Source of the DNA: Escherichia coli
GTDB lineage: Bacteria; Pseudomonadota; Gammaproteobacteria; Enterobacterales; Enterobacteriaceae
DNA length: 64,000 nucleotides
Direction: 5' to 3' (one strand)
Assembly: GCF_003334355.1 (NCBI RefSeq)
Contig: NZ_QOWP01000020.1
Positions 1 through 64,000 of the stretch are shown piece by piece. The translations under genes were made by a program, and so were the position numbers. The notes under the pieces are model-generated. The model did no database searches, had not been told where the DNA came from, and saw nothing but the letters and a program-made list of their open reading frames with translations. The stretch's first letter is position 1, and every line of letters begins with the position of its first letter.

Positions 1-1
1 G

Positions 2-619: not shown

Positions 620-655
620 TGTTTGAAACGGATGATTGGCGATGCGTATCATAAG

Positions 656-694
656 TTACGTATGTCCGCTTCTGGCACAAAGCAGACGCCCACT
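656..694. repeat. Hairpin repeat copy A (core 664-687: gtccgctt-ctggcaca-aagcagac), preceded by TTAC
   Basis: Read directly from the sequence. 8-nt inverted arms with one mismatch flank an 8-nt spacer. 28/38 nt are identical to copy B at 4329-4367, in direct orientation. Confidence 0.8.
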
Positions 695-749
695 CTCACG
701 CGAATGCTTTGCCCTTGACTTGCCAACAACCGTATCGCTTGCTCCGCAA

Positions 750-2042: not shown

Positions 2043-2062
2043 ATTGCAGCCGGGATAAATAA

Positions 2063-2083
2063 ATGCCGCCTCTGTGGCGGCAT
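2063..2083 (-). terminator. Rho-independent terminator downstream of the BCCT transporter gene
   Basis: Stem atgccgcc/ggcggcat with a 5-nt loop. On the minus strand it is followed by tttattta. It lies in the 48-nt gap between the two minus-strand genes. Confidence 0.6.
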
Positions 2084-2090
2084 GTTGCTG

Positions 2091-4094: not shown

Positions 4095-4328
4095 TTATTC
4101 CATTAATTAAATCCGCACTGGATAGAAGGTACTACCTCTCACAGAGTAGCAAAGTTCAACTGGCTATGCGGGGTTAATCGGAATGCATGGTGGAATGAGT
4201 GCCGATACAAATCATCCTATATTCTAAGGAGTTTTAAGTTACTCAGCCTGCCAATTACTGGGGCATTTAATTTGTATGATCTGTATCAAAGCTGGGATAT
4301 AAGTTAAGTGAAGTATATTAGGCACGAA

Positions 4329-4367
4329 TTACCAGCGTCTGCTCTTGGCACAAAGCGGACAACCACG
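4329..4367. repeat. Hairpin repeat copy B (core 4337-4360: gtctgctc-ttggcaca-aagcggac), preceded by TTAC
   Basis: Read directly from the sequence. It has the same 8-8-8 geometry as copy A. Its left arm matches the complement of A's right arm, and the reverse also holds. Confidence 0.8.
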
Positions 4368-4428
4368 CTAGCTCTACCCTGTGCCACAAAATGTCAATTT
4401 GCATCTGAACTAATGCACTTTAATCTCG

Positions 4429-4851
4429 TCACTTCAATAAATACCGAACATCCCCCTGATAAAACGACAATATGCGCTGCATAACTTCGCTCTTCCGGCA
4501 CTCGCGACAGATTATGTTTAGGCGACTGTCGTAGCGACGTATTTCTCCGTCAGGTAATGACCAGATAAGGTCCGGATCAACCACAACCGGTTTCTTCAGC
4601 TTTGCCCTCGATAATTTTTTGCGGGCATTTTGCCAGTCTTTACGAGCCTGTTCAGACGGGAATAACCCGTAGCCAGAATTGTATACATCGCCACTGGCAA
4701 CCAGCTCTCTGGCCAGAACGCTCATCAGATATCTTGTTGCCCCAGTTTTAGCTTCCAGTTGTCGTAACGTCTCGCGCCCACTCTGGCGTACGAGTTCAAG
4801 AACCTGCCCTTTAATTTTTTCCCGCTCTTCTTGTGTAAAAACTTTTGCCAC
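4429..4851 (-). CDS. Hypothetical prophage protein (140 aa), last phage-like ORF before the cargo
   Basis: The ORF is co-directional with, and 40 nt downstream of, the replication gene. The N-terminal part looks winged-helix-like (GRETLRQLEAKTGATRYLMSVLARELV), followed by a basic central stretch. I do not recognise the family. Confidence 0.45.
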   Translation of the reverse strand: MAKVFTQEEREKIKGQVLELVRQSGRETLRQLEAKTGATRYLMSVLARELVASGDVYNSGYGLFPSEQARKDWQNARKKLSRAKLKKPVVVDPDLIWSLPDGEIRRYDSRLNIICRECRKSEVMQRILSFYQGDVRYLLK

Positions 4852-4891
4852 AAGCCCTCCTGAAAATTACCTCATGACCAGAAATTAACAC

Positions 4892-5968
4892 TTACCCCCT
4901 GAAGCCCGGCGGAATTTCGTTATCCGGTTCAGAAATATGATTCACACAACGCTGGTTGTTCGTGCCGCTTACCGGGAGCAACCAGGGGTTCTCAAAATTC
5001 CGGTCCGGTCCAAAAAACGTCGTCGCTCGCTGAACAAATTCCGTTCCCGTTTTCCCGGTAGCCGCCAAGTATCTTGCGTAACGCCTCACGCCATCCAGCA
5101 TGGCCTCTGGTGGCACCCCCTCGCGTAATCTGGCCTTCCAGGCACTGAAAGCGGATTTCTTCGGGTTTGCCCCAGCACGCAACGGGTACTCCCGCCAGAC
5201 CTGTTCGAACACATCCGGATAATCCACTCGTCCCACAGACTGCCCGGTGTTTTCCGGGACTACCCGATCGGCTTCCCGCTGAATGGCGGAATCGGCTTCA
5301 GGCTGCTGCAGTTGGTGTGATTGCTCCGCCCTTGCGGTCATCACCTGCTGCACAGCGCCCGAATCGGCTTTCAGCGCATACGCTGAATCGGCTTCCGGTG
5401 TCGTGCCTGCTGGCTGACCAAGATTGACGGTCTGAACATCCCCTGCCTGGTTCGTGGCGTTTTTTACGCCATGGACCATAGTGTTTTGATCTTCTTGATC
5501 TGTATCTTTATCTGTATCTTTATCTGTCGTGACTCGTCGTGACATGTGCGTGACATTTCGTGACGCGCCGTGACAATCGCCATTTTGTTCCCGCTTTCTT
5601 TCCCTCTCTCGCTGCGCCCTCTTGCGCTCTGCAGGAGATTTTGCGGTTTGCGAAATATTGCCGTTGTCCTCTTTAAGCACCTGGCGTTTTTCCCATCCAG
5701 TGATTAAATCACCATCAAGTACCCGCCCCTGCATCGTCTGCAAAATTGAATCAATTACCTCTTCTGTCACGTCGAGCGCACTTGCCAAATCTTCTGTCGT
5801 GACATCAATGTGACCTCGCGTGACATTTCGTGACGCGCTCACCAGGAGGTGGATATACACTGCCATCACTGTTGCAATTGGCTGTCCTGACACCCTGGCA
5901 ATTGTTCGCCACTTAGGGTCATTTGGCATGTCATGCCATAATCTGAGCCAGGCGTTAGCCATACTCAC
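4892..5968 (-). CDS. Prophage replication protein, YdaU-like (DUF1376-type, lambda O analogue)
   Basis: 358-aa ORF. Its position after the cro/cII-like genes matches the lambdoid replication module. It starts MSMANAWLRLWHDMPNDPKWR. The C-terminal segment YPDVFEQVWREYPLRAGANPKKSAFSAWKARL is typical of prophage replication proteins. The gene contains phased iterons. The family name is from memory. Confidence 0.6.
   Translation of the reverse strand: MSMANAWLRLWHDMPNDPKWRTIARVSGQPIATVMAVYIHLLVSASRNVTRGHIDVTTEDLASALDVTEEVIDSILQTMQGRVLDGDLITGWEKRQVLKEDNGNISQTAKSPAERKRAQRERERKREQNGDCHGASRNVTHMSRRVTTDKDTDKDTDQEDQNTMVHGVKNATNQAGDVQTVNLGQPAGTTPEADSAYALKADSGAVQQVMTARAEQSHQLQQPEADSAIQREADRVVPENTGQSVGRVDYPDVFEQVWREYPLRAGANPKKSAFSAWKARLREGVPPEAMLDGVRRYARYLAATGKTGTEFVQRATTFFGPDRNFENPWLLPVSGTNNQRCVNHISEPDNEIPPGFRG
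5499..5574. repeat. Putative prophage origin, part 1: AT-rich 12-bp tandem (tctgtatcttta x2.4, 5499-5527) abutting five phased CGTGAC iterons
   Basis: CGTGAC occurs at 5528, 5538, 5549, 5559 and 5569, giving spacings of 10/11/10/10 bp. All copies are in the same orientation and lie inside the replication gene. Confidence 0.6.
5793..5838. repeat. Putative prophage origin, part 2: second cluster of four phased (C)GTGAC iterons
   Basis: Copies at 5798, 5809 (tgtgac), 5819 and 5829. The 46-nt block 5793-5838 is a diverged copy of 5523-5568, exactly 270 bp away. It includes a perfect 21-nt repeat gcgtgacatttcgtgacgcgc (5548-5568 and 5818-5838). Confidence 0.6.
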
Positions 5969-6033
5969 CTCTTTTGATACCGAATCTTTTTACTCACAAA
6001 TTGCCGGAAGTGATCCGGTATGAATATTGCGCG

Positions 6034-6459
6034 TCAATGCACAGCCACAATATTTCCTGCAGGGCCACCACGATTCATCTGGTTGAAACCAGCGATCGCC
6101 ACTGCGACAAAATCATCAGCGTCTCTCACCAGTCGTTCCCGCGTCTCCACTAGTTCCCGAAAATAGGCTGAGCTATGGCTGCGCATTCGGGCCACCAGCA
6201 GAGGTGGCATTGCTTTTTCGATAGCTGGTAACAACGCCTGAATTTTTTCAACTGCATCAGGGGTGTCTTTCTCTACCCAGCGGAAAATTTTCTGGGTATT
6301 GCGAGCCAGGGCTTCCGGATGGCTGTCGTCATACAGTTCTGGGAACGTCATACCCAGTTCAAAATAAGCCCTGGTTATTTCAGCTGCCGGAACTTTTTCA
6401 CCGTCCGGATGCGCCCAGGCATTCATCGCCATGCGGATGTGTTCATGCTTGATTTTCAT
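6034..6459 (-). CDS. YdaT-family protein (CII-like regulator of Rac-type prophages)
   Basis: The 141-aa ORF shares its start (MKIKHEHI) and end (..VAVH) with K-12 YdaT as I remember it, but the interior diverges. It sits directly after the cro-like gene. Confidence 0.6.
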   Translation of the reverse strand: MKIKHEHIRMAMNAWAHPDGEKVPAAEITRAYFELGMTFPELYDDSHPEALARNTQKIFRWVEKDTPDAVEKIQALLPAIEKAMPPLLVARMRSHSSAYFRELVETRERLVRDADDFVAVAIAGFNQMNRGGPAGNIVAVH

Positions 6460-6724
6460 GAATCAAGCTCCTAGAAAGTGGTTGTGTTAACATTTTGGTA
6501 TCTTCCAGCTCGGGCCAAATATTCATCCAATCAAAAGGCCTTAGTTGCTGACGTGTAACTTCACCATTACTGGCTCGCTCAATAAGGACACATAACGATG
6601 CCCCTAACACTTGACCTTTACTCAATGCCTTTCTTAGATAACCGATGCTGGTACCACACTCGCATGCAAACATACGCTGTTCATCTGACGAAAGAGAATT
6701 GAGAAATATTCTTAATTCTTCCAT
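6443..6724 (-). CDS. Cro/YdaS-like HTH protein
   Basis: 93-aa ORF transcribed divergently from the repressor gene across the operator region. It has an HTH-like segment (ECGTSIGYLRKALSKGQ) and overlaps the ydaT-like gene by 17 nt. It differs from K-12 YdaS (from memory). Confidence 0.55.
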   Translation of the reverse strand: MEELRIFLNSLSSDEQRMFACECGTSIGYLRKALSKGQVLGASLCVLIERASNGEVTRQQLRPFDWMNIWPELEDTKMLTQPLSRSLIHENQA

Positions 6725-6752
6725 AGCTACTCCTTAGTAAACACAGCAAAGA

Positions 6753-6830
6753 ATACCCATAGGTAAACAAAAGTCAATACCCACAGGTTGTTTACCTTGC
6801 AGTAATCGCATCTATTATTTACCTATGGAC
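6753..6830. promoter_or_regulatory. Operator cluster between the cro-like and repressor genes (OR-like)
   Basis: There are three copies of a 13-14-bp palindromic motif ATACCyAyrGGTAt: atacccataggta (6753-6765), atacccacaggtt (6777-6789) and a weaker tttacctatggac (6818-6830). The weaker copy overlaps the repressor ATG at 6825. Confidence 0.6.
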
Positions 6831-7244
6831 AAATATGAATTTAGACGACAGCAACTCATCAAAATTCGTGATGAGAAATGCGATGGTAAAGCGGTTAACG
6901 TGGCCAGAAAGATCGGGCGCGAGCCTTCTTATGTATCAAGAATGTTGTACCCAGAGGGGAAAAAGGGAAAAAAACGGATCGCTGATGATATGGTGGAGAT
7001 TATCGAAGAGTCCTTTGGGTTACCCCGGGGATGGATGGATGGTATCGTTTCATCATCAACGAACACAGCCTCCAGTTATGAAACAAGGGTTCTAACGCCA
7101 CGACAACGTATTTTTTTAGATCTCTTAGACGAACTGCCAGAAAGTGAAGCGGATAACTTATTAAAAACTCTTGAAGAGAAAAAACAGTATTACAATATGA
7201 TCTACGAAGAAATCCGTAAAAAGAAAGCACAAAACGCATCATAG
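6825..7244 (+). CDS. Prophage repressor (RacR/CI-like HTH protein)
   Basis: 139-aa ORF divergent from the cro-like gene. It has an HTH (GKAVNVARKIGREPSYVSRML) and is flanked on both sides by the same operator motif. There is no Shine-Dalgarno sequence before the ATG. Confidence 0.6.
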   Translation: MDKYEFRRQQLIKIRDEKCDGKAVNVARKIGREPSYVSRMLYPEGKKGKKRIADDMVEIIEESFGLPRGWMDGIVSSSTNTASSYETRVLTPRQRIFLDLLDELPESEADNLLKTLEEKKQYYNMIYEEIRKKKAQNAS

Positions 7245-7286
7245 CTCACCAAACAACTAGTCACCAGTTAAGACACCGTAAAAAGT

Positions 7287-7324
7287 TACCCATGGGTATT
7301 TACTTTTTAAATACCTATGGGTAT
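7287..7324. promoter_or_regulatory. Second operator pair downstream of the repressor gene (OL-like)
   Basis: tacccatgggta (7287-7298, with a perfect palindrome acccatgggt) and atacctatgggtat (7311-7324). This is the same motif as at 6753-6830. Confidence 0.6.
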
Positions 7325-7498
7325 CCTTCTTTTCATACCAACCCACCCCGCCCCACAGAATGCAGGGCAATACTTCGAGTTACCAGGCAGTGGTCAGGGG
7401 TTAAGTAGCCAGCCCGAGGCGTAAGAACATGACGGCGGGATTCAAATTTTGCAGTGCAGCAGTTAGTTCCGCCACCCGGCGTTAAGGGGAGAGATAAG

Positions 7499-7633
7499 AT
7501 GGTGCATTACGAAGTAGTTCAGTATTTGATGGATTGTTGCGGTATCACTTACAACCAGGCTGTGCAGGCTTTACGCAGCAACGACTGGGATCTCTGGCAG
7601 GCAGAAGTCGCTATACGTAGCAACAAGATGTGA
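7499..7633 (+). CDS. ydaG: Rac prophage small protein YdaG (44 aa)
   Basis: Below the ORF-track cutoff. My translation is MVHYEVVQYLMDCCGITYNQAVQALRSNDWDLWQAEVAIRSNKM, which I recognise as K-12 YdaG. Confidence 0.8.
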   Translation: MVHYEVVQYLMDCCGITYNQAVQALRSNDWDLWQAEVAIRSNKM

Positions 7634-7643
7634 GATTCGCAAA

Positions 7644-7799
7644 ATGCAAAAAATCGACCTCGGCAACAACGAATCCCTGGTGTGCGGCGTGTTCCCCAAC
7701 CAGGATGGAACGTTCACTGCCATGACGTATACCAAAAGCAAAACATTTAAAACCGAAACTGGTGCGCGCCGATGGTTGGAGAAGCACACAGTAAGCTAA
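7644..7799 (+). CDS. ydaF: Rac prophage small protein YdaF (51 aa)
   Basis: Below the ORF-track cutoff. My translation is MQKIDLGNNESLVCGVFPNQDGTFTAMTYTKSKTFKTETGARRWLEKHTVS. Confidence 0.8.
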   Translation: MQKIDLGNNESLVCGVFPNQDGTFTAMTYTKSKTFKTETGARRWLEKHTVS

Positions 7800-8284
7800 C
7801 GATTAAAACGTCTACTCCTGCTGTTCCAGAATAACTTCATAAAATGGGAGTATTTTTCGGTGACGAGATAATAAGAACAGTTTGCGCTATCACTCTGATG
7901 TTGAATGATGCCCTTCCGTTCTAATTTTTTCATAACCGGGTTACGGCAAGGAGAAGTGATAATAAGATTTCCTGTTTTAAGGAAATCTTTAAATACAGCG
8001 ATTTCTTTCTCAGATAAACGAAGCAATACTCGTTGCTCTGGTAGTAATGAATAATGCTTTTGAATATGTGCTCGCAATCTTGAGAAGGAAATGGCGACCA
8101 CGAAAGAAAAGGCAAAAACGATAATCTGAAAGAGCCAAGGTATTTCAGTATAAGCATTGAATGCGACAGTAAACTCTTTCGGTATCAGCCAGAGAGTGAG
8201 ACCAAAAATGATAATCGTATACATAAGTCTTTCGAGTGGCTCGTTAGCAAAAAGTTTCAACAATGGAGTAAATACATCCAACAT
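7796..8284 (-). CDS. sieB: Superinfection exclusion protein SieB
   Basis: Track ORF 7796..8407 contains the K-12 SieB sequence from Met42 (MLDVFTPLLKLFANEPLERLMY...). This gives the known 162-aa product. Confidence 0.9.
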   Translation of the reverse strand: MLDVFTPLLKLFANEPLERLMYTIIIFGLTLWLIPKEFTVAFNAYTEIPWLFQIIVFAFSFVVAISFSRLRAHIQKHYSLLPEQRVLLRLSEKEIAVFKDFLKTGNLIITSPCRNPVMKKLERKGIIQHQSDSANCSYYLVTEKYSHFMKLFWNSRSRRFNR

Positions 8285-8725
8285 ATCAATAACTCTCAAC
8301 TGTAAGGGTATTGAAATGTTAACACAAGCTCTCGCTGTAGGGGTATAGCCGAGACCACCGAAGCCCGGAGGTGGTGAAATAAAACCGGGCACAACACGAA
8401 GGCGCATTTCCGATATCCATAAAGAGTCGGTCTTGTCTGTTAAATTTAAATGGTGGGAGTGCGCCTCCGGTTGTAAATAACGACATTGCTGTGTGTAGTC
8501 CTGGCGGCATCAGTTTTTTTCTTGAAGTTCGGCTGATGTCCGCCCTTTTTAAAGTGAATTTTGTGATGCGGTGAATGCGGCTAAGCGCACGTGGCACAGT
8601 TAAAAGTCATGTTAGTCCTTATTGGTTTGGGTGGGAAAGCCGACTGTAATTGTTAACTGGTTGCAGTCACCTGGAGGCACCAGACACCGCATCAACAAAG
8701 TTCATTTGTAAAAATGGAGATAATT

Positions 8726-8947
8726 ATGATTGCACATCACTTCGGAACTGATGAAATACCACGTCAGTGTGTGACTCCTGGCGATTATGTTCTTCATGAA
8801 GGCCGGACATATATTGCCTCGGCAAACAATATTAAAAAGCGAAAACTATATATTCGTAACCTGACCACAAAAACATTCATTACTGACCGCATGATTAAAG
8901 TCTTCCTCGGTCGTGATGGTTTACCTGTAAAGGCGGAGTCATGGTGA
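8726..8947 (+). CDS. kilR: Rac prophage FtsZ inhibitor KilR
   Basis: 73-aa product [38 protein letters not shown]... within track ORF 8714..8947. Confidence 0.9.
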
Positions 8948-9117
8948 TGACTAAGAAAATAAAATGTGCTTACCACCTTTGCAAAAAAGACGTTGAAGAA
9001 AGCAAAGCTATTGAAAGAATGCTTCACTTCATGCACGGGATTTTATCAAAAGACGAACCGAGAAAATATTGCAGTGAAGCTTGTGCCGAAAAAGACCAGA
9101 TGGCACATGAACTTTAA
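8947..9117 (+). CDS. ydaE: Rac prophage Cys4 small protein YdaE (56 aa)
   Basis: Below the ORF-track cutoff. The product is [56 protein letters not shown]. Its ATG overlaps the kilR stop (gTGATGa). Confidence 0.85.
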   Translation: MTKKIKCAYHLCKKDVEESKAIERMLHFMHGILSKDEPRKYCSEACAEKDQMAHEL

Positions 9118-9191
9118 TTAATTGACTATTCGAAACTGAATTTATGCCAGAAATGGCAGGTATTCGCTCAACCTTAATTAAGGAGAAAAAC

Positions 9192-9467
9192 ATGATTACC
9201 AATTATGAAGCCACTGTTGTAACTACCGATGACATTGTTCACGAGGTGAATCTGGAAGGAAAGCGCATTGGCTACGTAATTAAAACAGAAAATAAAGAAA
9301 CCCCATTCACTGTGGTTGATATCGATGGTCCATCAGGCAACGTAAAAACACTTGATGAAGGTGTCAAAAAAATGTGCCTGGTGCATATCGGAAAGAATCT
9401 GCCCGCAGAAAAAAAAGCCGAATTTCTGGCAACTCTAATTGCAATGAAATTAAAAGGTGAAATCTGA
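9192..9467 (+). CDS. racC: Rac prophage protein RacC
   Basis: 91-aa product MITNYEATVVTTDDIVHEVNLEGKRIGYV... A strong SD (aaggagaaaaacATG) precedes the start. It lies inside track ORF 9144..9467. Confidence 0.9.
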   Translation: MITNYEATVVTTDDIVHEVNLEGKRIGYVIKTENKETPFTVVDIDGPSGNVKTLDEGVKKMCLVHIGKNLPAEKKAEFLATLIAMKLKGEI

Positions 9468-9472
9468 AAGAA

Positions 9473-9497
9473 ATAGCCTGCGTATGGCGCAGGCTAT
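9473..9497 (+). terminator. Hairpin between racC and recE (possible attenuator or terminator; no T-run)
   Basis: 10-bp perfect stem atagcctgcg/cgcaggctat with a 5-nt loop. Confidence 0.35.
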
Positions 9498-9568
9498 GAA
9501 CAGTGTGTATCCGGCAAGATCATTCACTGAACAAAACGAATTTTAATCTGAGTTGAGGTTAAAAAACA

Positions 9569-12169
9569 ATGAGCACAAAACCACTCTTCCTGTTACGGAA
9601 AGCGAAAAAATCATCCGGTGAACCTGACGTCGTCCTGTGGGCAAGCAACGATTTTGAATCGACCTGTGCCACTCTGGACTACCTGATCGTTAAGTCAGGT
9701 AAAAAACTGAGCAGCTATTTTAAAGCTGTTGCCACGAATTTTCCTGTCGTTAATGACCTGCCCGCTGAAGGTGAGATCGATTTTACCTGGAGTGAACGCT
9801 ATCAACTCAGCAAAGACTCCATGACATGGGAACTAAAACCGGGAGCAGCACCAGACAACGCTCACTATCAAGGCAATACCAACGTCAACGGCGAAGACAT
9901 GACTGAGATTGAGGAGAATATGCTACTCCCAATTTCTGGCCAGGAACTGCCCATTCGTTGGCTTGCTCAACACGGCAGCGAAAAACCGGTAACGCACGTT
10001 TCACGCGACGGACTCCAGGCATTACACATTGCTCTGGCTGAAGAACTACCGGCTGTTACTGCCCTGGCTGTTTCCCACAAAACCAGCCTGCTCGACCCGC
10101 TGGAAATTCGCGAACTCCACAAACTGGTTCGTGACACTGACAAAGTTTTCCCTAATCCTGGTAATTCAAACCTGGGACTGATAACTGCTTTTTTCGAAGC
10201 ATACCTGAACGCTGACTACACCGATCGAGGACTGCTGACAAAAGAGTGGATGAAGGGTAATCGTGTTTCACACATCACTCGCACGGCTTCCGGTGCTAAT
10301 GCTGGCGGCGGAAACCTCACCGATCGCGGCGAAGGTTTCGTACACGATCTGACGTCACTGGCGCGCGACGTAGCCACTGGCGTACTGGCCCGTTCAATGG
10401 ATCTGGACATCTATAACCTTCATCCGGCACACGCTAAACGCATTGAGGAAATTATCGCTGAAAATAAACCGCCCTTTTCTGTTTTCCGCGACAAATTCAT
10501 CACCATGCCTGGCGGGCTGGATTATTCCCGCGCCATCGTGGTTGCGTCCGTAAAAGAAGCACCAATTGGGATCGAGGTCATCCCCGCGCACGTCACTGAA
10601 TATCTGAACAAAGTACTGACTGAAACCGATCATGCCAACCCTGATCCGGAAATCGTGGATATTGCCTGCGGTCGCTCCTCTGCCCCGATGCCGCAGCGAG
10701 TAACAGAAGAAGGAAAACAGGATGATGAAGAAAAACCGCAACCATCTGGAACAACGGCAGTTGAACAGGGAGAGGCTGAAACAATGGAACCGGACGCAAC
10801 TGAACATCATCAGGACACGCAGCCGCTGGATGCTCAGTCACAGGTAAATTCTGTTGATGCGAAATATCAGGAACTGCGGGCAGAACTCCATGAAGCCCGG
10901 AAAAACATTCCATCAAAAAATCCTGTCGATGACGATAAATTGCTTGCTGCATCACGTGGTGAATTTGTTGACGGAATTAGCGACCCGAACGATCCGAAAT
11001 GGGTAAAGGGGATCCAGACTCGCGATTGTGTGTACCAGAACCAGCCAGAAACGGAAAAAACCAGCCCAGATATGAATCAACCTGAGCCAGTAGTGCAACA
11101 GGAACCGGAAATAGCCTGCAATGCCTGCGGCCAGACTGGCGGGGATAACTGCCCTGACTGTGGTGCGGTGATGGGCGACGCAACATACCAGGAAACATTC
11201 GATGAAGAGAGTCAGGTTGAAGCTAAGGAAAATGATCCGGAGGAAATGGAAGGCGCTGAACATCCGCACAATGAGAATGCTGGCAGCGATCCGCATCGCG
11301 ATTGCAGTGATGAAACTGGCGAAGTCGCAGATCCCGTAATCGTAGAAGACATAGAGCCAGGTATTTATTACGGAATTTCGAATGAGAATTACCACGCGGG
11401 TCCCGGTATCAGTAAGTCTCAGCTCGATGACATTGCTGATACTCCGGCACTATATTTGTGGCGTAAAAATGCCCCCGTGGACACCACAAAGACAAAAACG
11501 CTCGATTTAGGAACTGCTTTCCACTGCCGGGTACTTGAACCGGAAGAATTCAGTAACCGCTTTATCGTAGCACCTGAATTTAACCGCCGTACAAACGCCG
11601 GAAAAGAAGAAGAGAAAGCGTTTCTGATGGAATGCGCAAGCACAGGAAAAACGGTTATCACTGCGGAAGAAGGCCGGGAAATTGAACTCATGTATCAAAG
11701 CGTTATGGCTTTGCCGCTGGGGCAATGGCTTGTTGAAAGCGCCGGACACGCTGAATCATCAATTTACTGGGAAGATCCTGAAACAGGAATTTTGTGTCGG
11801 TGCCGTCCGGACAAAATTATCCCTGAATTTCACTGGATCATGGACGTGAAAACTACGGCGGATATTCAACGATTCAAAACCGCTTATTACGACTACCGCT
11901 ATCACGTTCAGGATGCATTCTACAGTGACGGTTATGAAGCACAGTTTGGAGTGCAGCCAACTTTCGTTTTTCTGGTTGCCAGCACAACTATTGAATGCGG
12001 ACGTTATCCGGTTGAAATTTTCATGATGGGCGAAGAAGCAAAACTGGCAGGTCAACAGGAATATCACCGCAATCTGCGAACCCTGTCTGACTGCCTGAAT
12101 ACCGATGAATGGCCAGCTATTAAGACATTATCACTGCCCCGCTGGGCTAAGGAATATGCAAATGACTAA
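9569..12169 (+). CDS. recE: Exodeoxyribonuclease VIII RecE
   Basis: 866-aa ORF, the same length as K-12 RecE. It has an acidic central region and a C-terminal nuclease domain, and is followed by the overlapping recT. Confidence 0.95.
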
Positions 12170-12971
12170 GCAACCACCAATCGCAAAAGCCGATCTGCAA
12201 AAAACTCAGGGAAACCGTGCACCAGCAGCAGTTAAAAATAGCGACGTGATTAGTTTTATTAACCAGCCATCAATGAAAGAGCAACTGGCAGCAGCTCTTC
12301 CACGCCATATGACGGCTGAACGTATGATCCGTATCGCCACCACAGAAATTCGTAAAGTTCCGGCGTTAGGAAACTGTGACACTATGAGTTTTGTCAGTGC
12401 GATCGTACAGTGTTCACAGCTCGGACTTGAGCCAGGTAGCGCCCTCGGTCATGCATATTTACTGCCTTTTGGTAATAAAAACGAAAAGAGCGGTAAAAAG
12501 AACGTTCAGCTAATCATTGGCTATCGCGGCATGATTGATCTGGCTCGCCGTTCTGGTCAAATCGCCAGCCTGTCAGCCCGTGTTGTCCGTGAAGGTGACG
12601 AGTTTAGCTTCGAATTTGGCCTTGATGAAAAGTTAATACACCGCCCGGGAGAAAACGAAGATGCCCCGGTTACCCACGTCTATGCTGTCGCAAGACTGAA
12701 AGACGGAGGTACTCAGTTTGAAGTTATGACGCGCAAACAGATTGAGCTGGTGCGCAGCCTGAGTAAAGCTGGTAATAACGGGCCGTGGGTAACTCACTGG
12801 GAAGAAATGGCAAAGAAAACGGCTATTCGTCGCCTGTTCAAATATCTGCCCGTATCAATTGAGATCCAGCGTGCAGTATCAATGGATGAAAAGGAACCAC
12901 TGACAATCGATCCTGCAGATTCCTCTGTATTAACCGGGGAATACAGTGTAATCGATAATTCAGAGGAATAA
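12162..12971 (+). CDS. recT: Single-strand annealing recombinase RecT
   Basis: 269-aa product from [24 protein letters not shown]... The ATG overlaps the recE stop. It lies inside track ORF 12105..12971. Confidence 0.95.
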
Positions 12972-12979
12972 TTCAGCCT

Positions 12980-12998
12980 GGCGGTGTAATGCACCGCC
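12980..12998 (+). terminator. Hairpin after recT
   Basis: Stem ggcggtg/caccgcc with a 5-nt loop. A T-run (atatttttt) begins about 11 nt downstream. Confidence 0.35.
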
Positions 12999-13027
12999 AA
13001 CTTGAAATATTTTTTATGAGAAAAATT

Positions 13028-13222
13028 ATGAGATATGACAATGTTAAACCATGTCCATTTTGTGGTTGTCCATCAGTAACGGTGAAAGCCATTTCAGGAT
13101 ATTACCGAGCGAAGTGTAACGGATGCGAATCCCGAACCGGTTATGGTGGAAGTGAAAAAGAAGCACTCGAAAGATGGAATAAACGAACCACTGGAAATAA
13201 TAATGGAGGTGTTCATGTATAA
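13028..13222 (+). CDS. ralR: Restriction alleviation protein / type I toxin RalR (Lar)
   Basis: 64-aa zinc-ribbon product MRYDNVKPCPFCGCPSVTVKAISGYYRAKCNGCESRTGYGGSEKEALERWNKRTTGNNNGGVHV. Confidence 0.9.
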   Translation: MRYDNVKPCPFCGCPSVTVKAISGYYRAKCNGCESRTGYGGSEKEALERWNKRTTGNNNGGVHV

Positions 13223-13424
13223 AATTACCGCCACTATTGAAAAGGAAGGTGGCACTCCTACTAACTGGACAAGATATTCAAAATCTAAACTAACGAAATC
13301 AGAATGCGAAAAAATGCTCTCAGGTAAAAAAGAAGCAGGCGTTTCCAGAGAGCAGAAAGTAAAACTGATAAATTTTAATTGCGAGAAACTTCAGTCCTCG
13401 AGAATTGCATTGTATTCAAATTAA
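13215..13424 (+). CDS. ydaC: Rac prophage protein YdaC
   Basis: 69-aa product MYKITATIEKEGGTPTNWTRYSKSKL... It overlaps the ralR stop by 8 nt. Confidence 0.85.
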   Translation: MYKITATIEKEGGTPTNWTRYSKSKLTKSECEKMLSGKKEAGVSREQKVKLINFNCEKLQSSRIALYSN

Positions 13425-13502
13425 AACTTCATAGCTGATTATTAATAATCAACATCGGGCGTCAATTTCAGTCTAACATTGGCGCCTGCCAGAGGTGATG
13501 CG

Positions 13503-13718
13503 ATGGCACAAGTAATCTTTAATGAAGAGTGGATGGTTGAATACGGCCTGATGCTTCGCACTGGTCTGGGGGCCAGACAAATTGAAGCATACCGCCAGAA
13601 CTGTTGGGTGGAGGGCTTCCACTTCAAACGAGTATCTCCTTTAGGTAAGCCAGACAGCAAACGAGGGATTATCTGGTACAACTATCCAAAGATAAATCAG
13701 TTTATCAAAGACTCATGA
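13503..13718 (+). CDS. xisR: Rac prophage excisionase XisR (YdaQ)
   Basis: 71-aa product [35 protein letters not shown]..., immediately upstream of intR. Confidence 0.85.
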
Positions 13719-13719
13719 T

Positions 13720-14955
13720 ATGTCTAAATTACCAACAGGTGTCGAGATTAGAGGTAGATACATTCGCATCTGGTTCATGTTTCGAGGAAAACGATGTCGG
13801 GAAACATTAAAAGGCTGGGAGATTACAAACAGTAATATTAAAAAGGCCGGAAATTTAAGAGCGCTGATAGTTCATGAAATAAACTCCGGTGAATTTGAGT
13901 ATTTAAGACGTTTTCCCCAGTCCAGCACTGGGGCAAAAATGGTGACAACGAGAGTCATAAAAACGTTCGGAGAGCTTTGTGATATCTGGACAAAAATTAA
14001 AGAGACAGAGTTAACAACAAACACAATGAAGAAAACGAAATCACAATTAAAAACACTCAGAATAATAATTTGTGAAAGTACCCCGATATCACATATTCGT
14101 TATAGCGATATCTTAAACTACCGGAATGAACTGCTGCATGGAGAAACGCTTTACCTGGATAATCCAAGATCCAACAAAAAAGGAAGAACCGTGCGCACAG
14201 TTGATAACTATATCGCCCTGCTCTGTTCGCTGTTGCGTTTTGCGTATCAGTCGGGATTTATATCAACCAAACCATTTGAAGGAGTAAAAAAATTACAGCG
14301 AAACAGAATAAAGCCTGATCCGTTATCTAAAACAGAATTCAATGCATTAATGGAAAGTGAAAAAGGACAGAGCCAGAACTTGTGGAAATTTGCCGTTTAC
14401 TCAGGACTTCGTCACGGGGAACTGGCAGCTCTGGCGTGGGAGGATGTGGATCTCGAAAAGGGAATAGTGAATGTCAGAAGAAACCTGACGATACTTGATA
14501 TGTTCGGTCCCCCAAAAACAAATGCCGGGATCCGAACAGTAACACTACTGCAGCCTGCTCTTGAAGCACTGAAGGAGCAATACAAACTGACCGGGCATCA
14601 TCGCAAAAGCGAAATCACCTTTTATCATCGGGAGTACGGCAGAACCGAAAAGCAAAAACTGCATTTTGTTTTCATGCCCAGGGTGTGTAACGGAAAACAA
14701 AAACCTTATTACTCGGTAAGCAGTTTGGGGGCAAGGTGGAATGCAGCAGTAAAACGTGCTGGTATTCGCCGCCGTAATCCGTACCATACGCGGCATACTT
14801 TTGCCTGCTGGCTGTTGACGGCAGGAGCGAACCCGGCATTTATAGCCAGCCAAATGGGGCATGAAACTGCGCAGATGGTGTATGAAATTTACGGTATGTG
14901 GATTGATGACATGAACGACGAACAGATAGCCATGTTGAATGCGCGGTTATCGTAG
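13720..14955 (+). CDS. intR: Rac prophage tyrosine integrase IntR
   Basis: 411-aa ORF with the C-terminal catalytic region (..NPYHTRHTFACWLLTAGANPAFIASQMGHETAQMVYEIY). It lies next to the ttcA junction. Confidence 0.95.
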   Translation: MSKLPTGVEIRGRYIRIWFMFRGKRCRETLKGWEITNSNIKKAGNLRALIVHEINSGEFEYLRRFPQSSTGAKMVTTRVIKTFGELCDIWTKIKETELTTNTMKKTKSQLKTLRIIICESTPISHIRYSDILNYRNELLHGETLYLDNPRSNKKGRTVRTVDNYIALLCSLLRFAYQSGFISTKPFEGVKKLQRNRIKPDPLSKTEFNALMESEKGQSQNLWKFAVYSGLRHGELAALAWEDVDLEKGIVNVRRNLTILDMFGPPKTNAGIRTVTLLQPALEALKEQYKLTGHHRKSEITFYHREYGRTEKQKLHFVFMPRVCNGKQKPYYSVSSLGARWNAAVKRAGIRRRNPYHTRHTFACWLLTAGANPAFIASQMGHETAQMVYEIYGMWIDDMNDEQIAMLNARLS

Positions 14956-17704: not shown

Positions 17705-17826
17705 AAAAAAAAGCCGACTCATCAAAGTCGGCGTCGTACGAATCAATTGTGCTATGCAGTAATTCAAAAAAGGAAGTAAGACAATATGGAGCGCAACGCC
17801 CATCGCTTGACGTTGCATTCACCTGC
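17705..17826 (-). ncRNA. fnrS: FNR-activated small RNA FnrS
   Basis: The reverse complement reads GCAGGTGAATGCAACGTCAAGCGATGGGCGTTGCGCTCCATATTGTCTTACTTCC...GCCGACTTTGATGAGTCGGCTTTTTTTT. I recognise this as the 122-nt FnrS including its terminator. Confidence 0.9.
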
Positions 17827-21203: not shown

Positions 21204-21297
21204 ACCGGCGCAGAGGAGACAATGCCGGATTTAAGACGCGGATGCACTGCTGTGTGTACTGTAGAGTCTGGCGGATGTCGACAGACTCTATTTTTTT
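21204..21297 (+). ncRNA. mcaS: Small RNA McaS (IsrA)
   Basis: ACCGGCGCAGAGGAGACAATGCCGGATTTAAGACGCGGATGCACTGCTGTGTGTACTGTAGAGTCTGGCGGATGTCGACAGACTCTATTTTTTT is recognised as McaS. The terminator hairpin and T-run are present. It lies in the smrA-abgR gap. Confidence 0.9.
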
Positions 21298-21305
21298 ATG
21301 CAGTT

Positions 21306-35857: not shown

Positions 35858-35883
<26 letters not shown>
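35155..35883 (+). CDS. mpaA: Murein tripeptide amidase MpaA
   Basis: 242-aa product from MTVTRPRAERGAFPPGTEHYGRSLLGAPLIWFPAP... Confidence 0.9.
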
Positions 35884-36833
<950 letters not shown>

Positions 36834-41791: not shown

Positions 41792-42790
41792 ATGTCCCCT
41801 ACTATTTATGATATTGCCAGGGTTGCAGGCGTATCAAAATCCACCGTATCACGCGTGCTGAATAAGCAAACTAATATCTCCCCGGAAGCGCGCGAAAAAG
41901 TGTTACGGGCCATTGAAGAATTACAGTATCAGCCAAACAAGCTGGCCCGCGCACTGACCTCTTCGGGTTTTGATGCCATTATGGTGATTTCTACCCGTTC
42001 GACCAAAACTACGGCGGGTAATCCGTTTTTCTCTGAAGTTTTGCATGCCATCACCGCCAAAGCTGAAGAAGAAGGTTTCGACGTGATATTACAAACGTCG
42101 CACAATCCGGCAGAAGATCTGCAAAAATGCGAAAGCAAAATTAAGCAGAAAATGATTAAAGGCATTATTATGCTCAGTTCGCCAGCGGATGAGTCATTTT
42201 TTGCCCAACTCGATAAATATGATATTCCGGTGGTGGTGATTGGCAAAGTTGAAGGTCAATATGCCCATGTTTATTCTGTCGATACCGATAATTTTGGCGA
42301 CAGCATTGCGTTGACCGATGCATTAATTGAAAGTGGGCATCAAAATATTGCCTGCCTGCATGCTCCGCTTGATGTCCATGTTTCGGTTGATCGCGTTAAT
42401 GGTTATAAGCAGAGCCTGGCTGCGCATAATATTGCAGTGCGTGATGAATGGATTGTTGATGGCGGTTATACCCATGAAATTGCATTAAAAGCAGCACGGC
42501 AATTATTAAGCCAGTCACCGTTGCCTGAGGCGGTGTTTGCCACTGACAGCCTGAAATTAATGAGCATTTATCGTGCGGCAGCAGAGAAAAATATTGCTAT
42601 TCCGCAGCAGTTAGCGGTGGTGGGTTATAGCAATGAAACGCTGTCATTTATTTTAACGCCTGCACCGGGCGGCATCGATGTTCCGACGCAGGAGTTAGGT
42701 CAACAAAGCTGCGAGTTATTATTCAGCTTAATTTCTGGAAAACCGTCACCACAGAATATTACCGTTGCCACGCATATGACGCTGAAATAA
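41792..42790 (+). CDS. ycjW: LacI-family regulator YcjW
   Basis: 332-aa ORF with the N-terminal [24 protein letters not shown]. Confidence 0.9.
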
Positions 42791-58938: not shown

Positions 58939-60204
58939 TTAATCGCTCAGCGCATCCTGCAAAATTTTCATTGCCGCATCGAATTGCGCATCCGGGATGG
59001 TCAGCGGATACAGGAAGCGAATCACGTTGCCGTATGCGCCACAGGTCAGCAGGAGCAGCCCCTGCGCCAGCGCGCGTTGCTGGATTTTCTGTGCAATCGC
59101 CGCTGACGGCTCGCCCGTTTGCGGATCGTTAAACTCTACCGCAATCATCGACCCCAGGCCGCGTACCGCAGCAATGGCCGGAACGCTTTCTTTGGCATCA
59201 ATCAACGTGTTTTTGAGACGCTGGCCCAGTTGATTCGCGCGTTCGCAGAGTGATTCTTTGTCGATAATATTGAGCACCGCGTGCGCGGCAGCCACCGCCA
59301 GCGGGTTACCGGCGTAGGTGCCGCCAAGCCCGCCCGGCGCGGGTGCGTCCATAATATTCGCGTTACCGACCACGCCCGAAAGCGGCATCCCGCCCGCGAG
59401 GCTTTTCGCCATCGTCATTAAATCCGGCTTATCGGCGTAATGATCCATGGCAAACAGCTTACCGGTACGCGCAAAGCCGCTTTGCACTTCATCAGCAATC
59501 ATCACAATACCGTGCTCGTCGCACAGGCGGCGAATAGCGGCAACCAGCTCTTTTGGCGCAACGTTGAAACCGCCCTCGCCCTGCACCGGTTCGAAAATAA
59601 TCGCCGCCACCTGCTTCGCTTCGATGTCTGATTTAAACAAGCGTTCGATGGCGTCGAGGGAGTCCTGTGTTGAAATGCCGTGTAAATCTGACGGATAAGG
59701 TACGTGATACACCGAACCAGGGAACGGGCCGAAGCCGATTTTGTACGGCGCAACTTTTCCGGTCAGCGCCATGGTCATATACGTACGACCGTGAAAGCCG
59801 CCGCTAAACGCAATCACGCCAGGGCGTCCGGTATGGGCGCGAGCAATTTTCACCGCGTTTTCCACCGCTTCCGCACCGGTGGTGAAGAACGCGGTTTTGG
59901 CCTGCCCGCTCACCGGGGCAAGGGCGTTGATTTTCTCCGCCAGGGTGACGTAGCTTTCATACGGCACAATCTGATACGCGGTGTGGGTAAACTGTTGCAG
60001 TTGCTGCTCCACCGCCGCGACCAGATCAGGGTGGCGATGTCCGGTATTCAGCACCGCAATGCCTGCGGCGAAATCGATGTACTCGTTGCCCTCAACATCC
60101 TTCAGCGTGGCGTTTTCAGCCGACTGGGCGAAGAAGTTACACATCACGCCAACCCCGCGCGGAGTGGCAGAAAGACGACGCTGATGGAATTCATTGTTGC
60201 TCAT
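58939..60204 (-). CDS. puuE: 4-Aminobutyrate aminotransferase PuuE
   Basis: 421-aa class-III aminotransferase ORF. Confidence 0.95.
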   Translation of the reverse strand: MSNNEFHQRRLSATPRGVGVMCNFFAQSAENATLKDVEGNEYIDFAAGIAVLNTGHRHPDLVAAVEQQLQQFTHTAYQIVPYESYVTLAEKINALAPVSGQAKTAFFTTGAEAVENAVKIARAHTGRPGVIAFSGGFHGRTYMTMALTGKVAPYKIGFGPFPGSVYHVPYPSDLHGISTQDSLDAIERLFKSDIEAKQVAAIIFEPVQGEGGFNVAPKELVAAIRRLCDEHGIVMIADEVQSGFARTGKLFAMDHYADKPDLMTMAKSLAGGMPLSGVVGNANIMDAPAPGGLGGTYAGNPLAVAAAHAVLNIIDKESLCERANQLGQRLKNTLIDAKESVPAIAAVRGLGSMIAVEFNDPQTGEPSAAIAQKIQQRALAQGLLLLTCGAYGNVIRFLYPLTIPDAQFDAAMKILQDALSD

Positions 60205-60241: not shown

Positions 60242-61522
60242 TTAAACGCCCAGACGATCGCGCAGGCTGTAATACGCCGCGCCCATCGCGGTAAACGGCA
60301 CACGCAGCGTGCGCCCGCCGGGGAACGGGTAATGCGGCAGATTGGCGAAGGCATCGAAACGTTCGGCGTCGCCGCGCAGCAGTTCGGCAATCAAACGTCC
60401 GGCTAGATGAGTACAGGTCACGCCGTGGCCGCTGTAGCCCTGCATGTAATAGATGTTGGTATCGAGGCGACCAAACTGCGGCATACGCGACAGGGTCAGC
60501 AGGAAGTTGCCCGTCCAGCGGTAATCAATTTTCACGCCCTTCAGCTGCGGGAAGGTTTTCAGCAGTTTCGGCACCACAAGGCGCTCAACGTCATCCGGGT
60601 CGCGCGCGCCGTAGACCACGCCGCCGCCGTACAGCAGGCGGTTGTCGGCGGTAAGACGGTAGTAATCAAGCAGATAGTTACAGTCTTCCACACAGTAGTT
60701 TTTCGGGATCAGCGAACGGGCTAAATCTTCCGACAGCCGTTCGGTGGTGATCACCTGCGTGCCGCACGGCATGCTGCGTTTCGCCAGTTCCGGCTCTACT
60801 TTATCGCCCAGATACGCATTCCCGGCGACAATCACATACTTCGCCGTCACCTGACCTTTGGCAGTTCGCACAACGGCTGGCGTGGTGTGCTGGATCTGCG
60901 TCACGGCAGAAAGTTCATACACGCGCCCGCCGTTGAGGCGGATGGCGTCCGCTTCGCCAATGGCGAGGTTTAGCGGATGAATATGCCCACCGCTGTGATC
61001 CAGCAGCGCACCAGTGTAGCGATCGCTGGCGACCTCGCGGCGAATAGCGTTGGCGTCCAGCAGCTCCAGCTGATTATTGCCGTAGCGTTCCCAGTTCTCT
61101 TTCTGCTCTTCGAGTGTGGCGAGTTGTTTATCATTCATCGCCACAAACAGACCGCCGGGACGATAGTCGCAGTCAATCTGATAACGTTTGATACGTTCGC
61201 GGATGATCTCGCCACCCTCGAACATCATGCTGCCGAGCATACGGGCGGTGTCCATGCCGTAGTTTTTTTCGATCACGTCGATGTCGCGGCTGTAGGAGTT
61301 CACAAGCTGCCCGCCATTGCGTCCGCTTGCGCCGAAGCCGATGCGTGAGGCTTCAAGAACCACCACGTCAAAGCCCGCTTCCGCCAGATGCAGCGCGGAA
61401 GAGAGCCCGGTATAGCCGCCGCCGACCACGCAAACGTCGCAGGAAATCGACTCATTCAGCGTGTCGAATGGCGCGTATTTATTCGCACTGGCGGCGTAGT
61501 AACTGCTGGTATGTTCGGTCAT
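60242..61522 (-). CDS. puuB: Gamma-glutamylputrescine oxidase PuuB
   Basis: 426-aa FAD oxidoreductase ORF (VVGGGYTG). Confidence 0.95.
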   Translation of the reverse strand: MTEHTSSYYAASANKYAPFDTLNESISCDVCVVGGGYTGLSSALHLAEAGFDVVVLEASRIGFGASGRNGGQLVNSYSRDIDVIEKNYGMDTARMLGSMMFEGGEIIRERIKRYQIDCDYRPGGLFVAMNDKQLATLEEQKENWERYGNNQLELLDANAIRREVASDRYTGALLDHSGGHIHPLNLAIGEADAIRLNGGRVYELSAVTQIQHTTPAVVRTAKGQVTAKYVIVAGNAYLGDKVEPELAKRSMPCGTQVITTERLSEDLARSLIPKNYCVEDCNYLLDYYRLTADNRLLYGGGVVYGARDPDDVERLVVPKLLKTFPQLKGVKIDYRWTGNFLLTLSRMPQFGRLDTNIYYMQGYSGHGVTCTHLAGRLIAELLRGDAERFDAFANLPHYPFPGGRTLRVPFTAMGAAYYSLRDRLGV

Positions 61523-61523
61523 T

Positions 61524-63011
61524 TCAGGCCTCCAGGCTTATCCAGATGGTTTTCAGTTCGGTGAATTTTTCAAGGGCATGCAGGGATTTGTCGCGACCGT
61601 TGCCGCTCTGCTTATAGCCGCCAAACGGCACGGTCATATCGCCGTCGTTGTAGTTATTGACGAAGACGGAACCAGCCTTCAGGCGGCGGCTCATGCGGTG
61701 CGCGCGGGAGAGGTCGCGCGTCCATACCGCCGCGCCAAGGCCGTACTGGCTGTCGTTGGCAAGCTGTAGCGCCTGTTCTTCTGATGTGAAACGCGTGACC
61801 ACCAGCACCGGACCGAAAATCTCTTCGCGGCTTAAGGACGCATTCGGGTCTACATCCACAAAGATGGTCGGGCCGATGGCGGCAGCCAGCTCAGCGTTAC
61901 GACCATCCAGCAGCAGTTGCCCTTTGCTTTCGCCTTCCCGAATAAAGCTATGGACCGAGTCGGCGTGGGCGCAGTCGATTAAGGTGCCCATGGTGGTTGC
62001 GGGATCAAGTGGATGGCCCGGCTGCCAGTTTTGCGCCTACTGTTTTAACAGGGCTAAGAATTCATCGGCGATGCTCTCTTCCAGCAACAAACGCGTTCCG
62101 GCGATGCACACCTGGCCCTGGTTGTAGAAGATGCCTGCGGCGGTGGCGCTTGCCGCTTTTTACAGATCCGGACAATCGGCGAAAACGAGGTTGGCGCTTT
62201 TGCCGCCCGCTTCCAGCCAGACGCGTTTCATGTTGCTGTCGCCCGCATCTTTCAGCAGCTGTTTCCCGGTACGGGTTGAACCGGTAAAGGCAATGGCGTC
62301 GATATCGTTATGACGCGACAGCGCCTGCCCCGCTTCATGACCAAAACCCGTCACCACGTTCAACACACCATCCGGCAAGCCTGCTTCTTTCGCCAGCCCC
62401 GCGAGACGAATCGCACTGAGCGGTGATTTTTCAGACGGTTTTAGAATCACGCTGTTTCCCGCCGCCAGCGCCGGGCCGAGTTTCCAGCAAGTCAGCAACA
62501 GCGGGAAGTTCCACGGCACGATGGCGGCAATCACGCCGACCGGTTCACGCACGATCATCGCCAGCTCATGGCTACTGGTGGTCGCCACTTCGCCATACAC
62601 TTTGTCGATCGCTTCGGCGTACCAGCGAATGGCGCGCGCCGCGCCGGGAATATCATCACGCAGACTGTGACGAATCGGTTTGCCGGTGTCGAGAGTTTCC
62701 AGCAGTGCCAGCTCTTCGGCGTGGGCTTCCATTAAATCGGCGAGTTTATTCAGTACCGCTTTACGTTTAGCCGGAGAAGAGAGTGACCAGTCGCCGCGTT
62801 CAAATACGCCGCGTGCTGCGCTCACCGCACGGTCGATATCGACGCTCTTGCCGCGGGCAATTTTCGCCAGCGGTGCCTGGGTGACCGGATCAACGGTTTC
62901 AAAGGTTTCATTTTCCGCCGCAGCAGTATATTCACCGTTAATAAATAAGCGGTTTTCAATGGCGAGACTTAACGCTTTATCCTGCCAGTAAGCCAGATGA
63001 TGAAAATTCAT
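61524..63011 (-). pseudogene. puuC: Gamma-glutamyl-gamma-aminobutyraldehyde dehydrogenase gene puuC with two in-frame stops (TAA codon 284, TAG codon 325)
   Basis: Track ORFs 62160..63107 and 61524..61991 lie in one frame of a 496-codon gene that starts at MNFHHLAYWQDKAL (63011). The minus strand reads ..ADCPDL-TAA-KAASATAAGIFYNQGQVCIAGTRLLLEESIADEFLALLKQ-TAG-AQNWQPGHPLDPATTMGTLID.. The stops are at 62160-62162 and 62037-62039, and there is no frameshift. Confidence 0.85.
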
Positions 63012-63285: not shown

Positions 63286-63843
63286 TTAAAACGTGGTGGG
63301 CGTATGGGCGCTGATAATTCGGCAAATACCTGCCGACGTATTACTGAAACTGTGCGGGATGCCGGTATTAATGGCATAACTTTGCCCCGCGACGAGGTGG
63401 TAATCCTGACCATTAATCGTCAGAACAATTTCACCTTCCAGTACTGTGCCTATTTCCTCACCCTGATGCTTAATTCTTTCCCCAGTGGTTGTGCCCGGCT
63501 GGTACGTTTCAAAGATCATCGCCAGCGTGCGATTCGGGTTACCGTTATGAACCAGCTTCATTGACACACCCTGACTGCCCATCTCAATTAAGTCGTCCTG
63601 ATTAATGACGACCTGCGGCTCATCAGGTTTTTCCGGCTCGGAAAAGAATTCCGAGAGTGACAGACCATACACCTTCAGCAGCTTTTGCAGCGTACTGATG
63701 GCAGGGCTGACTTTATCTTGTTCTATCGTACTGATAGCACTGTGAGTCAGCCCGGAGAGTTCGGCGGCACGACGTTGTGAAAGCCCCTGCTGCTGGCGGA
63801 TTTCCGACAAGCGTTTTCCTGGCGCCAGTCCCTCATCACTCAT
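63286..63843 (-). CDS. puuR: Putrescine-utilisation repressor PuuR (HTH + cupin)
   Basis: 185-aa ORF. Confidence 0.95.
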   Translation of the reverse strand: MSDEGLAPGKRLSEIRQQQGLSQRRAAELSGLTHSAISTIEQDKVSPAISTLQKLLKVYGLSLSEFFSEPEKPDEPQVVINQDDLIEMGSQGVSMKLVHNGNPNRTLAMIFETYQPGTTTGERIKHQGEEIGTVLEGEIVLTINGQDYHLVAGQSYAINTGIPHSFSNTSAGICRIISAHTPTTF

Positions 63844-63869: not shown

Positions 63870-64000
63870 TCAGAGTCGCTGTTTTTCAGCGATATGGTGC
63901 TGACAAGCGGTGATAAAGCCCTCGAACAATATACGCGAAAGCGCGTACTCGCTACTGTTCCATTCCGGGTGCCACTGTACGCCCAGCGCAAAAGGATGAT
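63870..64000 (-). CDS. puuD: Gamma-glutamyl-GABA hydrolase PuuD, 3' end only (continues beyond the window)
   Basis: The minus strand ends ..FITACQHHIAEKQRL-TGA with the stop at 63870-63872. It is absent from the ORF track because the window truncates it. Confidence 0.8.
   Translation of the reverse strand, partial: HPFALGVQWHPEWNSSEYALSRILFEGFITACQHHIAEKQRL

Follow-up and report, generated by a model that had tools for sequence, protein, structure and literature searches.

The stretch of DNA analysed here, hereafter the window, comprises 64,000 nucleotides of Escherichia coli (NCBI RefSeq assembly GCF_003334355.1, contig NZ_QOWP01000020.1), and the gene in question is puuC, which encodes gamma-glutamyl-gamma-aminobutyraldehyde dehydrogenase and lies on the minus strand (61524..63011) as a pseudogene. 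Its translated frame has 495 codons and the natural TGA, and it is broken by two further stops on the same strand: an older one at codon 284 (62160..62162, CAA>TAA, Q284*) and a younger one at codon 325 (62037..62039, CAG>TAG, Q325*). Relative to the intact allele of ATCC 8739 and MLI023K1 (WP_001009112.1), only 2 of the 1488 nucleotides differ, both of them C>T changes at the first base of a glutamine codon, and there are no insertions or deletions. The sequence-only reading of this DNA had described two in-frame stops at Gln codons without a frameshift, and both the translation and the ATCC 8739 comparison bear this out; the residues that it gave for K-12 at the two sites (LQQAAS and KQQAQ) agree with the K-12 gene. 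It also suspected that the codon after the first stop differs from K-12, which is the case, but Lys285 occurs in intact alleles as well and is a standing polymorphism rather than a new change. As that reading held, the segment between the stops is otherwise preserved: its 40 codons, including the QGQVCIAG motif with Cys302 (62097..62120, minus strand), match the intact ATCC 8739 allele. The Glu267 motif LEAGGKS (62196-62216, minus strand) lies upstream of the first stop. No uninterrupted frame thus holds both the Glu and the Cys motifs, Cys302 being enclosed between the stops at 284 and 325.

The operon position of puuC is colinear with the annotated operons of PSS-12, ATCC 8739, MLI023K1 and K-12. 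K-12 PuuC (AldH, b1300; puuDRCBE) occupies the same locus, with the gene order puuP-puuA / puuD-puuR-puuC-puuB-puuE beside pspF, and its gene differs from that of the window by 27 nucleotides and 6 amino acids, the two stops counted. Unlike K-12 PuuC, the window frame is cut short at codon 284, with a second stop at codon 325, leaving the Cys302 region untranslated. With the NCBIfam equivalog NF007352 (cutoff 850 bits) as the measure of membership, the intact ancestral allele scores 1112 bits, and the two fragments encoded in the window fall below the cutoff (629 bits for the 283-residue fragment and 337 bits for the 155-residue fragment). Judged by sequence, the locus is puuC by descent and its predicted products are not PuuC proteins.

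The closest complete genome, that of PSS-12 (NZ_AP027697.1; human faeces, Ecuador), gives access to the order in which the stops arose. Positions 14327-64000 of the window align colinearly with PSS-12 over 49.7 kb, at 21 mismatches and without a gap, and the PSS-12 puuC (AABK13_RS04295), annotated in RefSeq as having an internal stop, carries the same Q284* on the same haplotype as the window, but codon 325 is still CAG. When the differences are polarised with MLI023K1 and ATCC 8739, the tree is ((window, PSS-12), MLI023K1), ATCC 8739, with 11 single-nucleotide polymorphisms (SNPs) shared by the window and PSS-12 (including Q284*), 9 on the window branch (including Q325*) and 12 on the PSS-12 branch. 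Since Q284* falls on the shared branch and Q325* on the branch leading to the window only, Q284* came first and Q325* later. The two sister clades also differ in what surrounds the common stop: PSS-12 has a puuD frameshift, PuuB I84T and PuuE C228Y, whereas the window clade has a puuA frameshift and PuuB K150N. To survey the stops, 55-nt probes, designed so that any 28-nt megablast seed is forced across the mutated base, were run against 5426 complete E. coli genomes; Q284* was found in one of them (PSS-12) and Q325* in none of the 5426. The disruption is derived with respect to intact orthologues, 4363 of these complete genomes matching at least 80% of puuC. The nested distribution of the stops across independent assemblies indicates that they are inherited, and the double stop would represent a datable, stepwise decay in which the first stop is older than the second.

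Several public assemblies carry the same bases. An NCBI assembly (GCA_014464935.1; loci L009 and L010) and a Logan assembly of run ERR4578542 (L012 and L025), the latter with a contig seen in five samples, match the window at 100% identity over 30.7 kb, and both carry Q284* and Q325* (L010 and L012/L025). The window-specific proteins YcjW (T230I, R312S) and PuuB (K150N) were each found on 7 public contigs, and the 283-residue N-terminal PuuC product, which serves as a marker of Q284*, on 17 contigs, including four assemblies of the PSS-12 sub-clade; the Logan assemblies L011, L013 and L016 have Q284*. As the same bases occur in independent assemblies, the stops are genuine, and re-sequencing is unlikely to restore CAA and CAG, an outcome that would have undone the original observation.

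The number of changes in puuC is what the locality predicts. From local SNP density, 0.27-0.36 substitutions are expected in puuC per branch, the window branch standing at 0.27 (9 SNPs in 49.7 kb for a gene of 1488 nt), and the observed number is one for the shared branch and one for that of the window. The count thus matches the local density. The 32 lineage-specific SNPs are dominated by G:C>A:T changes (21/32, 66%), and under this spectrum the nonsense share of puuC substitutions is 3.5% (16 CAA/CAG and 9 TGG codons). A second stop within a dead gene of 1.5 kb is then roughly a 1% event per pseudogene; a typical E. coli genome contains a hundred or so pseudogenes, if not more, so that about one double-hit gene is expected per genome and the extra stop in puuC does not exceed chance. 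The sequence-only reading had considered two nonsense hits in one gene unusual for neutral decay. This view does not hold: the stops are sequential, the second fell in a frame that was already terminated, and the SNP count of puuC matches the local density. Non-synonymous and synonymous changes stand at 4:6 on the older, shared branch, at 6:1 for the window and at 7:3 for PSS-12, and together with the spectrum rich in G:C>A:T they form the usual pattern of recent mutations that have yet to be purged. Besides two nonsense changes, the window branch has four missense, one synonymous and two intergenic SNPs.

Downstream and upstream of puuC, all on the minus strand, puuB (60242..61522) is open with a window-specific missense change (K150N, position 61073), puuE (58939..60204) is open, the repressor gene puuR (63286..63843) is open and unchanged, and puuD is represented by its 3' end (63870..64000, the last 43 codons), the gene running past the end of the window. 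Of the four neighbours said to be intact, puuB, puuE and puuR can be confirmed as open, whereas the state of puuD could not have been read from 43 codons; the full gene is intact in the L010 and L012 loci, which are 100% identical to the window. The further statement that nonsense hits spare the neighbours is incomplete, given a stop in ycjG (Q103*) within the window and a 1-bp deletion in puuA in the window-identical assemblies. The latter, in the gene for the first enzyme of the pathway, which lies beyond position 64000, shortens AAA to AA at codon 70 in L010 and L012 (position 3958 of the reference locus L002). In the PSS-12 sub-clade, four assemblies have lost one G from a run of seven at puuD codon 163 (G7>G6), and besides PuuB I84T and PuuE C228Y there are further private missense changes in puuB, puuE and puuP; the changes in these last three genes are missense only. 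Additional disruptive changes, which had been named as the sign of ordinary decay, are therefore found, at the level of the pathway, in the puuA and puuD frameshifts. After Q284*, the puu genes accumulated 12 non-synonymous or disruptive changes against 1 synonymous change, and the flanking non-puu genes 5 against 0, with equal SNP density in the two sets (~1.6e-3 per site). Because the flanking genes behave alike, the high non-synonymous ratio is a property of the young branches and is not specific to puu.

The lesion in ycjG, which encodes an L-Ala-D/L-Glu epimerase (35858-36823, minus strand), is an amber mutation of the window clade (Q103*, CAG>TAG, 36515-36517). The gene is intact in PSS-12, MLI023K1 and ATCC 8739, and no ycjG was called in the window-identical locus L009.

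We thus consider it very probable that puuC became a pseudogene recently, by two separate and ordinary steps, in a lineage that circulates naturally and in which a dispensable pathway is decaying. A spontaneous C>T change would have turned the Gln284 codon CAA into TAA in the common ancestor of the window strain and of PSS-12-like strains, and the resulting product of 283 residues would end short of Cys302, without the C-terminal half of the fold of an aldehyde dehydrogenase. The oxidation of gamma-glutamyl-gamma-aminobutyraldehyde by PuuC would be lost at this step. A second C>T change on the branch of the window would then have turned the Gln325 codon CAG into TAG with no added effect: the frame was already terminated 41 codons upstream, so Q325* would be invisible to selection. 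The remainder of the glutamylated putrescine (Puu) pathway would decay in parallel, through the puuA and puuD frameshifts, and the lineage would tolerate the loss of puuC since E. coli can do without the Puu pathway. The alleles compared show the two mutations, the order in which they arose, that they are inherited, and the additional lesions; that PuuC activity is lost and that the second stop is neutral is what we infer from them. The 283-residue product ends before Cys302 and lacks the C-terminal 212 residues, which align along the full length of solved aldehyde dehydrogenase structures (5iuu/KauB and 4lih). Cys302 and Glu267 are the putative catalytic residues, a role that such residues have in aldehyde dehydrogenases generally.

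The first stop may also be felt further downstream. A single base lies between the stop of puuC and the start of puuB (TGA-a-ATG, 61520..61526, minus strand), with a GGAGG sequence a few bases upstream inside puuC, and Q284* leaves ~637 nt untranslated before the puuB start. On account of this one-base junction, the internal GGAGG and the untranslated stretch, translational coupling into puuB and puuE is probably reduced, and transcription of these genes is possibly reduced as well through Rho polarity. The window strain is predicted to be without the glutamylated putrescine degradation route. In practical terms, puuC should carry a pseudogene annotation, and the open reading frames of 283 and 155 residues should not be taken for separate aldehyde dehydrogenases.

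That the Puu pathway is dispensable in nature is seen from the genomes that lack it. A puuC match is wholly absent from 1054 of the 5426 complete genomes (~19%). In these genomes the match stops just past pspF, and in Rb-50 (L033, 8820-9245) pspF abuts ymjA-sapA with a small gene remnant between; we suspect that the genomes devoid of puu belong to phylogroup B2. The predicted outcome is the same in Rb-50-type genomes, which have no puuPADRCBE and hence no Puu pathway, but there the cluster is cleanly missing, whereas in the window the genes are all still in place and have decayed recently, through point changes. Putrescine can also be degraded via YgjG/YdcW (PMC11998418; PMC9397018), and there is a second transaminase route to gamma-aminobutyrate. 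In lineages of E. coli, S. boydii and S. sonnei, Puu genes have been reported to be absent or pseudogenised as a fixed trait, and in MG1655 a puuC deletion gave more biofilm and better adhesion, from which selection for Puu loss was argued (bioRxiv 10.1101/2024.06.03.596356). The lineages of that study, which include V. parahaemolyticus pandemic wave 4, resemble the window clade in that the same pathway was lost within a clade and puuC is the key blocked step; they differ in showing mostly deletions and lineage-wide absence, against point nonsense in a small clade in which selection is not demonstrable. The pseudogene status of puuC is already recognised in the nearest RefSeq genome and fits the published losses, to which the window adds one small data point for repeated Puu-gene loss in enteric bacteria, with little weight beyond annotation.

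Some observations nevertheless weigh against a purely ordinary decay. Two of the 7 coding SNPs on the window branch are nonsense (puuC Q325* and ycjG Q103*), where ~0.25 are expected (P(>=2) ~0.02), although this excess is weak evidence of oddity since only the ycjG stop strikes a live gene. Disruptive lesions number 4 in ~8 kb of puu genes against 1 in ~41 kb of other coding sequence, a post hoc comparison in which part of the ascertainment comes from the finding itself. Finally, the CAA>TAA change of Q284* is also present on an unrelated haplotype (L014, run SRR13347155, position 6850), which could hint at selection or at a hotspot for the first hit. Over 12,852 bp this locus is identical to NCTC9113 (L032) but for 1 base, and 183 sites set it apart from the window clade; as the Q284* base is the only one that separates it from NCTC9113, an independent recurrence appears the simplest reading, simpler than recombination, even if a tract of less than 1.6 kb could still have been the source. 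A look-up of the 155-residue C-terminal fragment returned other independent puuC lesions, such as a deletion of C at codon 339 (GCA_045903955.1) and E312* in a metagenome scaffold; the metagenome loci L023 and L027-L031, and L024, were not counted as clean lesions owing to possible scaffold gaps or error-rich assembly.

It may then be asked whether puuC, and afterwards other puu genes, were inactivated under positive selection in a gut-associated clade. Higher intracellular putrescine would, for example, promote biofilm and adhesion, and a hit in puuA would stop the production of a reactive aldehyde that cells without PuuC cannot oxidise. This is compatible with the CAA>TAA change on the L014 haplotype, with the different second knockout gained by each sister clade (puuA or puuD frameshift), with the other independent puuC lesions in public assemblies, with the absence of the puu cluster from ~19% of complete genomes and with the biofilm and adhesion phenotype for which selection has been argued (bioRxiv 10.1101/2024.06.03.596356). 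We nonetheless hold it to be unlikely: SNP density and non-synonymous excess are equal in the flanking genes, with no signal in puu beyond the frameshifts, Q284* is rare, being found in 1 of 5426 complete genomes, and in a search that took in hundreds of thousands of assemblies chance alone should lead to a repeated C>T at one of the ~34 G:C sites where a stop can be created. In addition, PuuD acts downstream of PuuC, so that its loss brings no detoxification benefit. A puu-specific substitution excess was looked for and rejected, the density being the same as in the flanking genes. The full sequence of events, in which Puu was shut down under positive selection through a recurrent Q284* followed by a second knockout in each clade (puuA or puuD), seems to us a little more doubtful still. 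Were it true, adaptive loss of function would repeatedly have struck puuC in gut E. coli, and the double stop would be a footprint of the time spent switched off; even so, the second puuC stop would be a neutral passenger.

The idea that one or both stops are base-calling or assembly errors draws on the existence of error-laden public assemblies of this operon, such as L024 (CP178317.1), and it is highly improbable: both stops are present in the separately produced GCA_014464935.1 and ERR4578542 assemblies, Q284* is one of 11 SNPs that together mark the shared branch and is found in the complete PSS-12 genome too, and no indel separates the window from PSS-12 over 49.7 kb. Hardly more credible is an induced or engineered origin, by chemical mutagenesis, a mutator phase or base editing of the CRISPR-STOP type. 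All three nonsense changes of the window are indeed C>T at CAA or CAG, and 21 of the 32 lineage SNPs are G:C>A:T, but this is also the normal spontaneous bias in E. coli; the stops fall on separate branches, one nested in the other, of a natural phylogeny comprising a human faecal isolate from Ecuador and several unrelated runs, the spectrum also contains transversions and A:T>G:C changes, and the three nonsense sites lie outside Dcm CCWGG contexts. The work of Coulondre and Miller on lacI reportedly placed amber hotspots at Dcm sites, at CAG in CCAGG, through deamination of 5-methylcytosine, which likewise creates a stop by C>T at the first base of a Gln codon. As a candidate cause such a hotspot was rejected, 0 of 3 nonsense sites being in CCWGG (contexts ctgCaaa, cagCagg and agaCagc). 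The chance that the stops are read through, for instance by a supE-like amber suppressor inserting Gln so that full-length PuuC is made, is close to nil. The younger stops, puuC Q325* and ycjG Q103*, are both CAG>TAG, and such a suppressor would put back the wild-type residue at each. Against this, the stops are derived: they are limited to a single small clade and one recurrence, with Gln in all other alleles examined. The first stop, TAA followed by A, terminates strongly and is not read by an amber suppressor. No tRNA gene was found within the window and no Rfam element in the puu region, which speaks against recoding, as does the fact that neither stop is UGA, the selenocysteine codon of E. 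coli. Spontaneous, stepwise decay of puuC remains the explanation that we retain.

Among the puuC loci in public data, four contigs (L017-L020) end exactly at codon 283/284 (locus position 6849/6851), with no foreign sequence and with a wild-type CA where the bases are visible; puuA nonsense mutations are present in two of them (E412* in L018 and W347* in L019). The exact-product look-up favours any contig that ends at this codon, and these ends may reflect such a selection effect or a graph break at a variable site; a hotspot for IS insertion and a mixture of C and T within the samples were also considered as causes. L024 (CP178317.1, GCA_047199205.1), although labelled a complete genome, contains 30 indel or nonsense events across the aligned puuR, puuC, puuB and puuE, and looks like an error-rich long-read assembly rather than biology.

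Elsewhere in the window, the gene for the LacI-type regulator YcjW (41792-42790, plus strand) has T230I and R312S at 42480 and 42725, 2 of the 9 window-specific SNPs, where ~0.18 are expected in 999 nt (P(>=2) ~0.014); with these changes, the ycjM-V/ompG sugar operon may be regulated differently. In pspD, a gene of 73 codons, each sister clade has acquired an independent missense change, A64T in the window (56172) and G20A in PSS-12. The first part of the window (1-14326) is a Rac-type prophage region, with recE, recT, sieB and ydaT among the genes in 4200-13100; PSS-12 lacks this last stretch, and its site is ridden with insertion sequences (IS421, IS1203, IS1 and IS5). Rfam matches place the RalA antitoxin small RNA at 13221-13399 and the small RNAs FnrS (17709-17826) and McaS (21204-21299) in their expected places.

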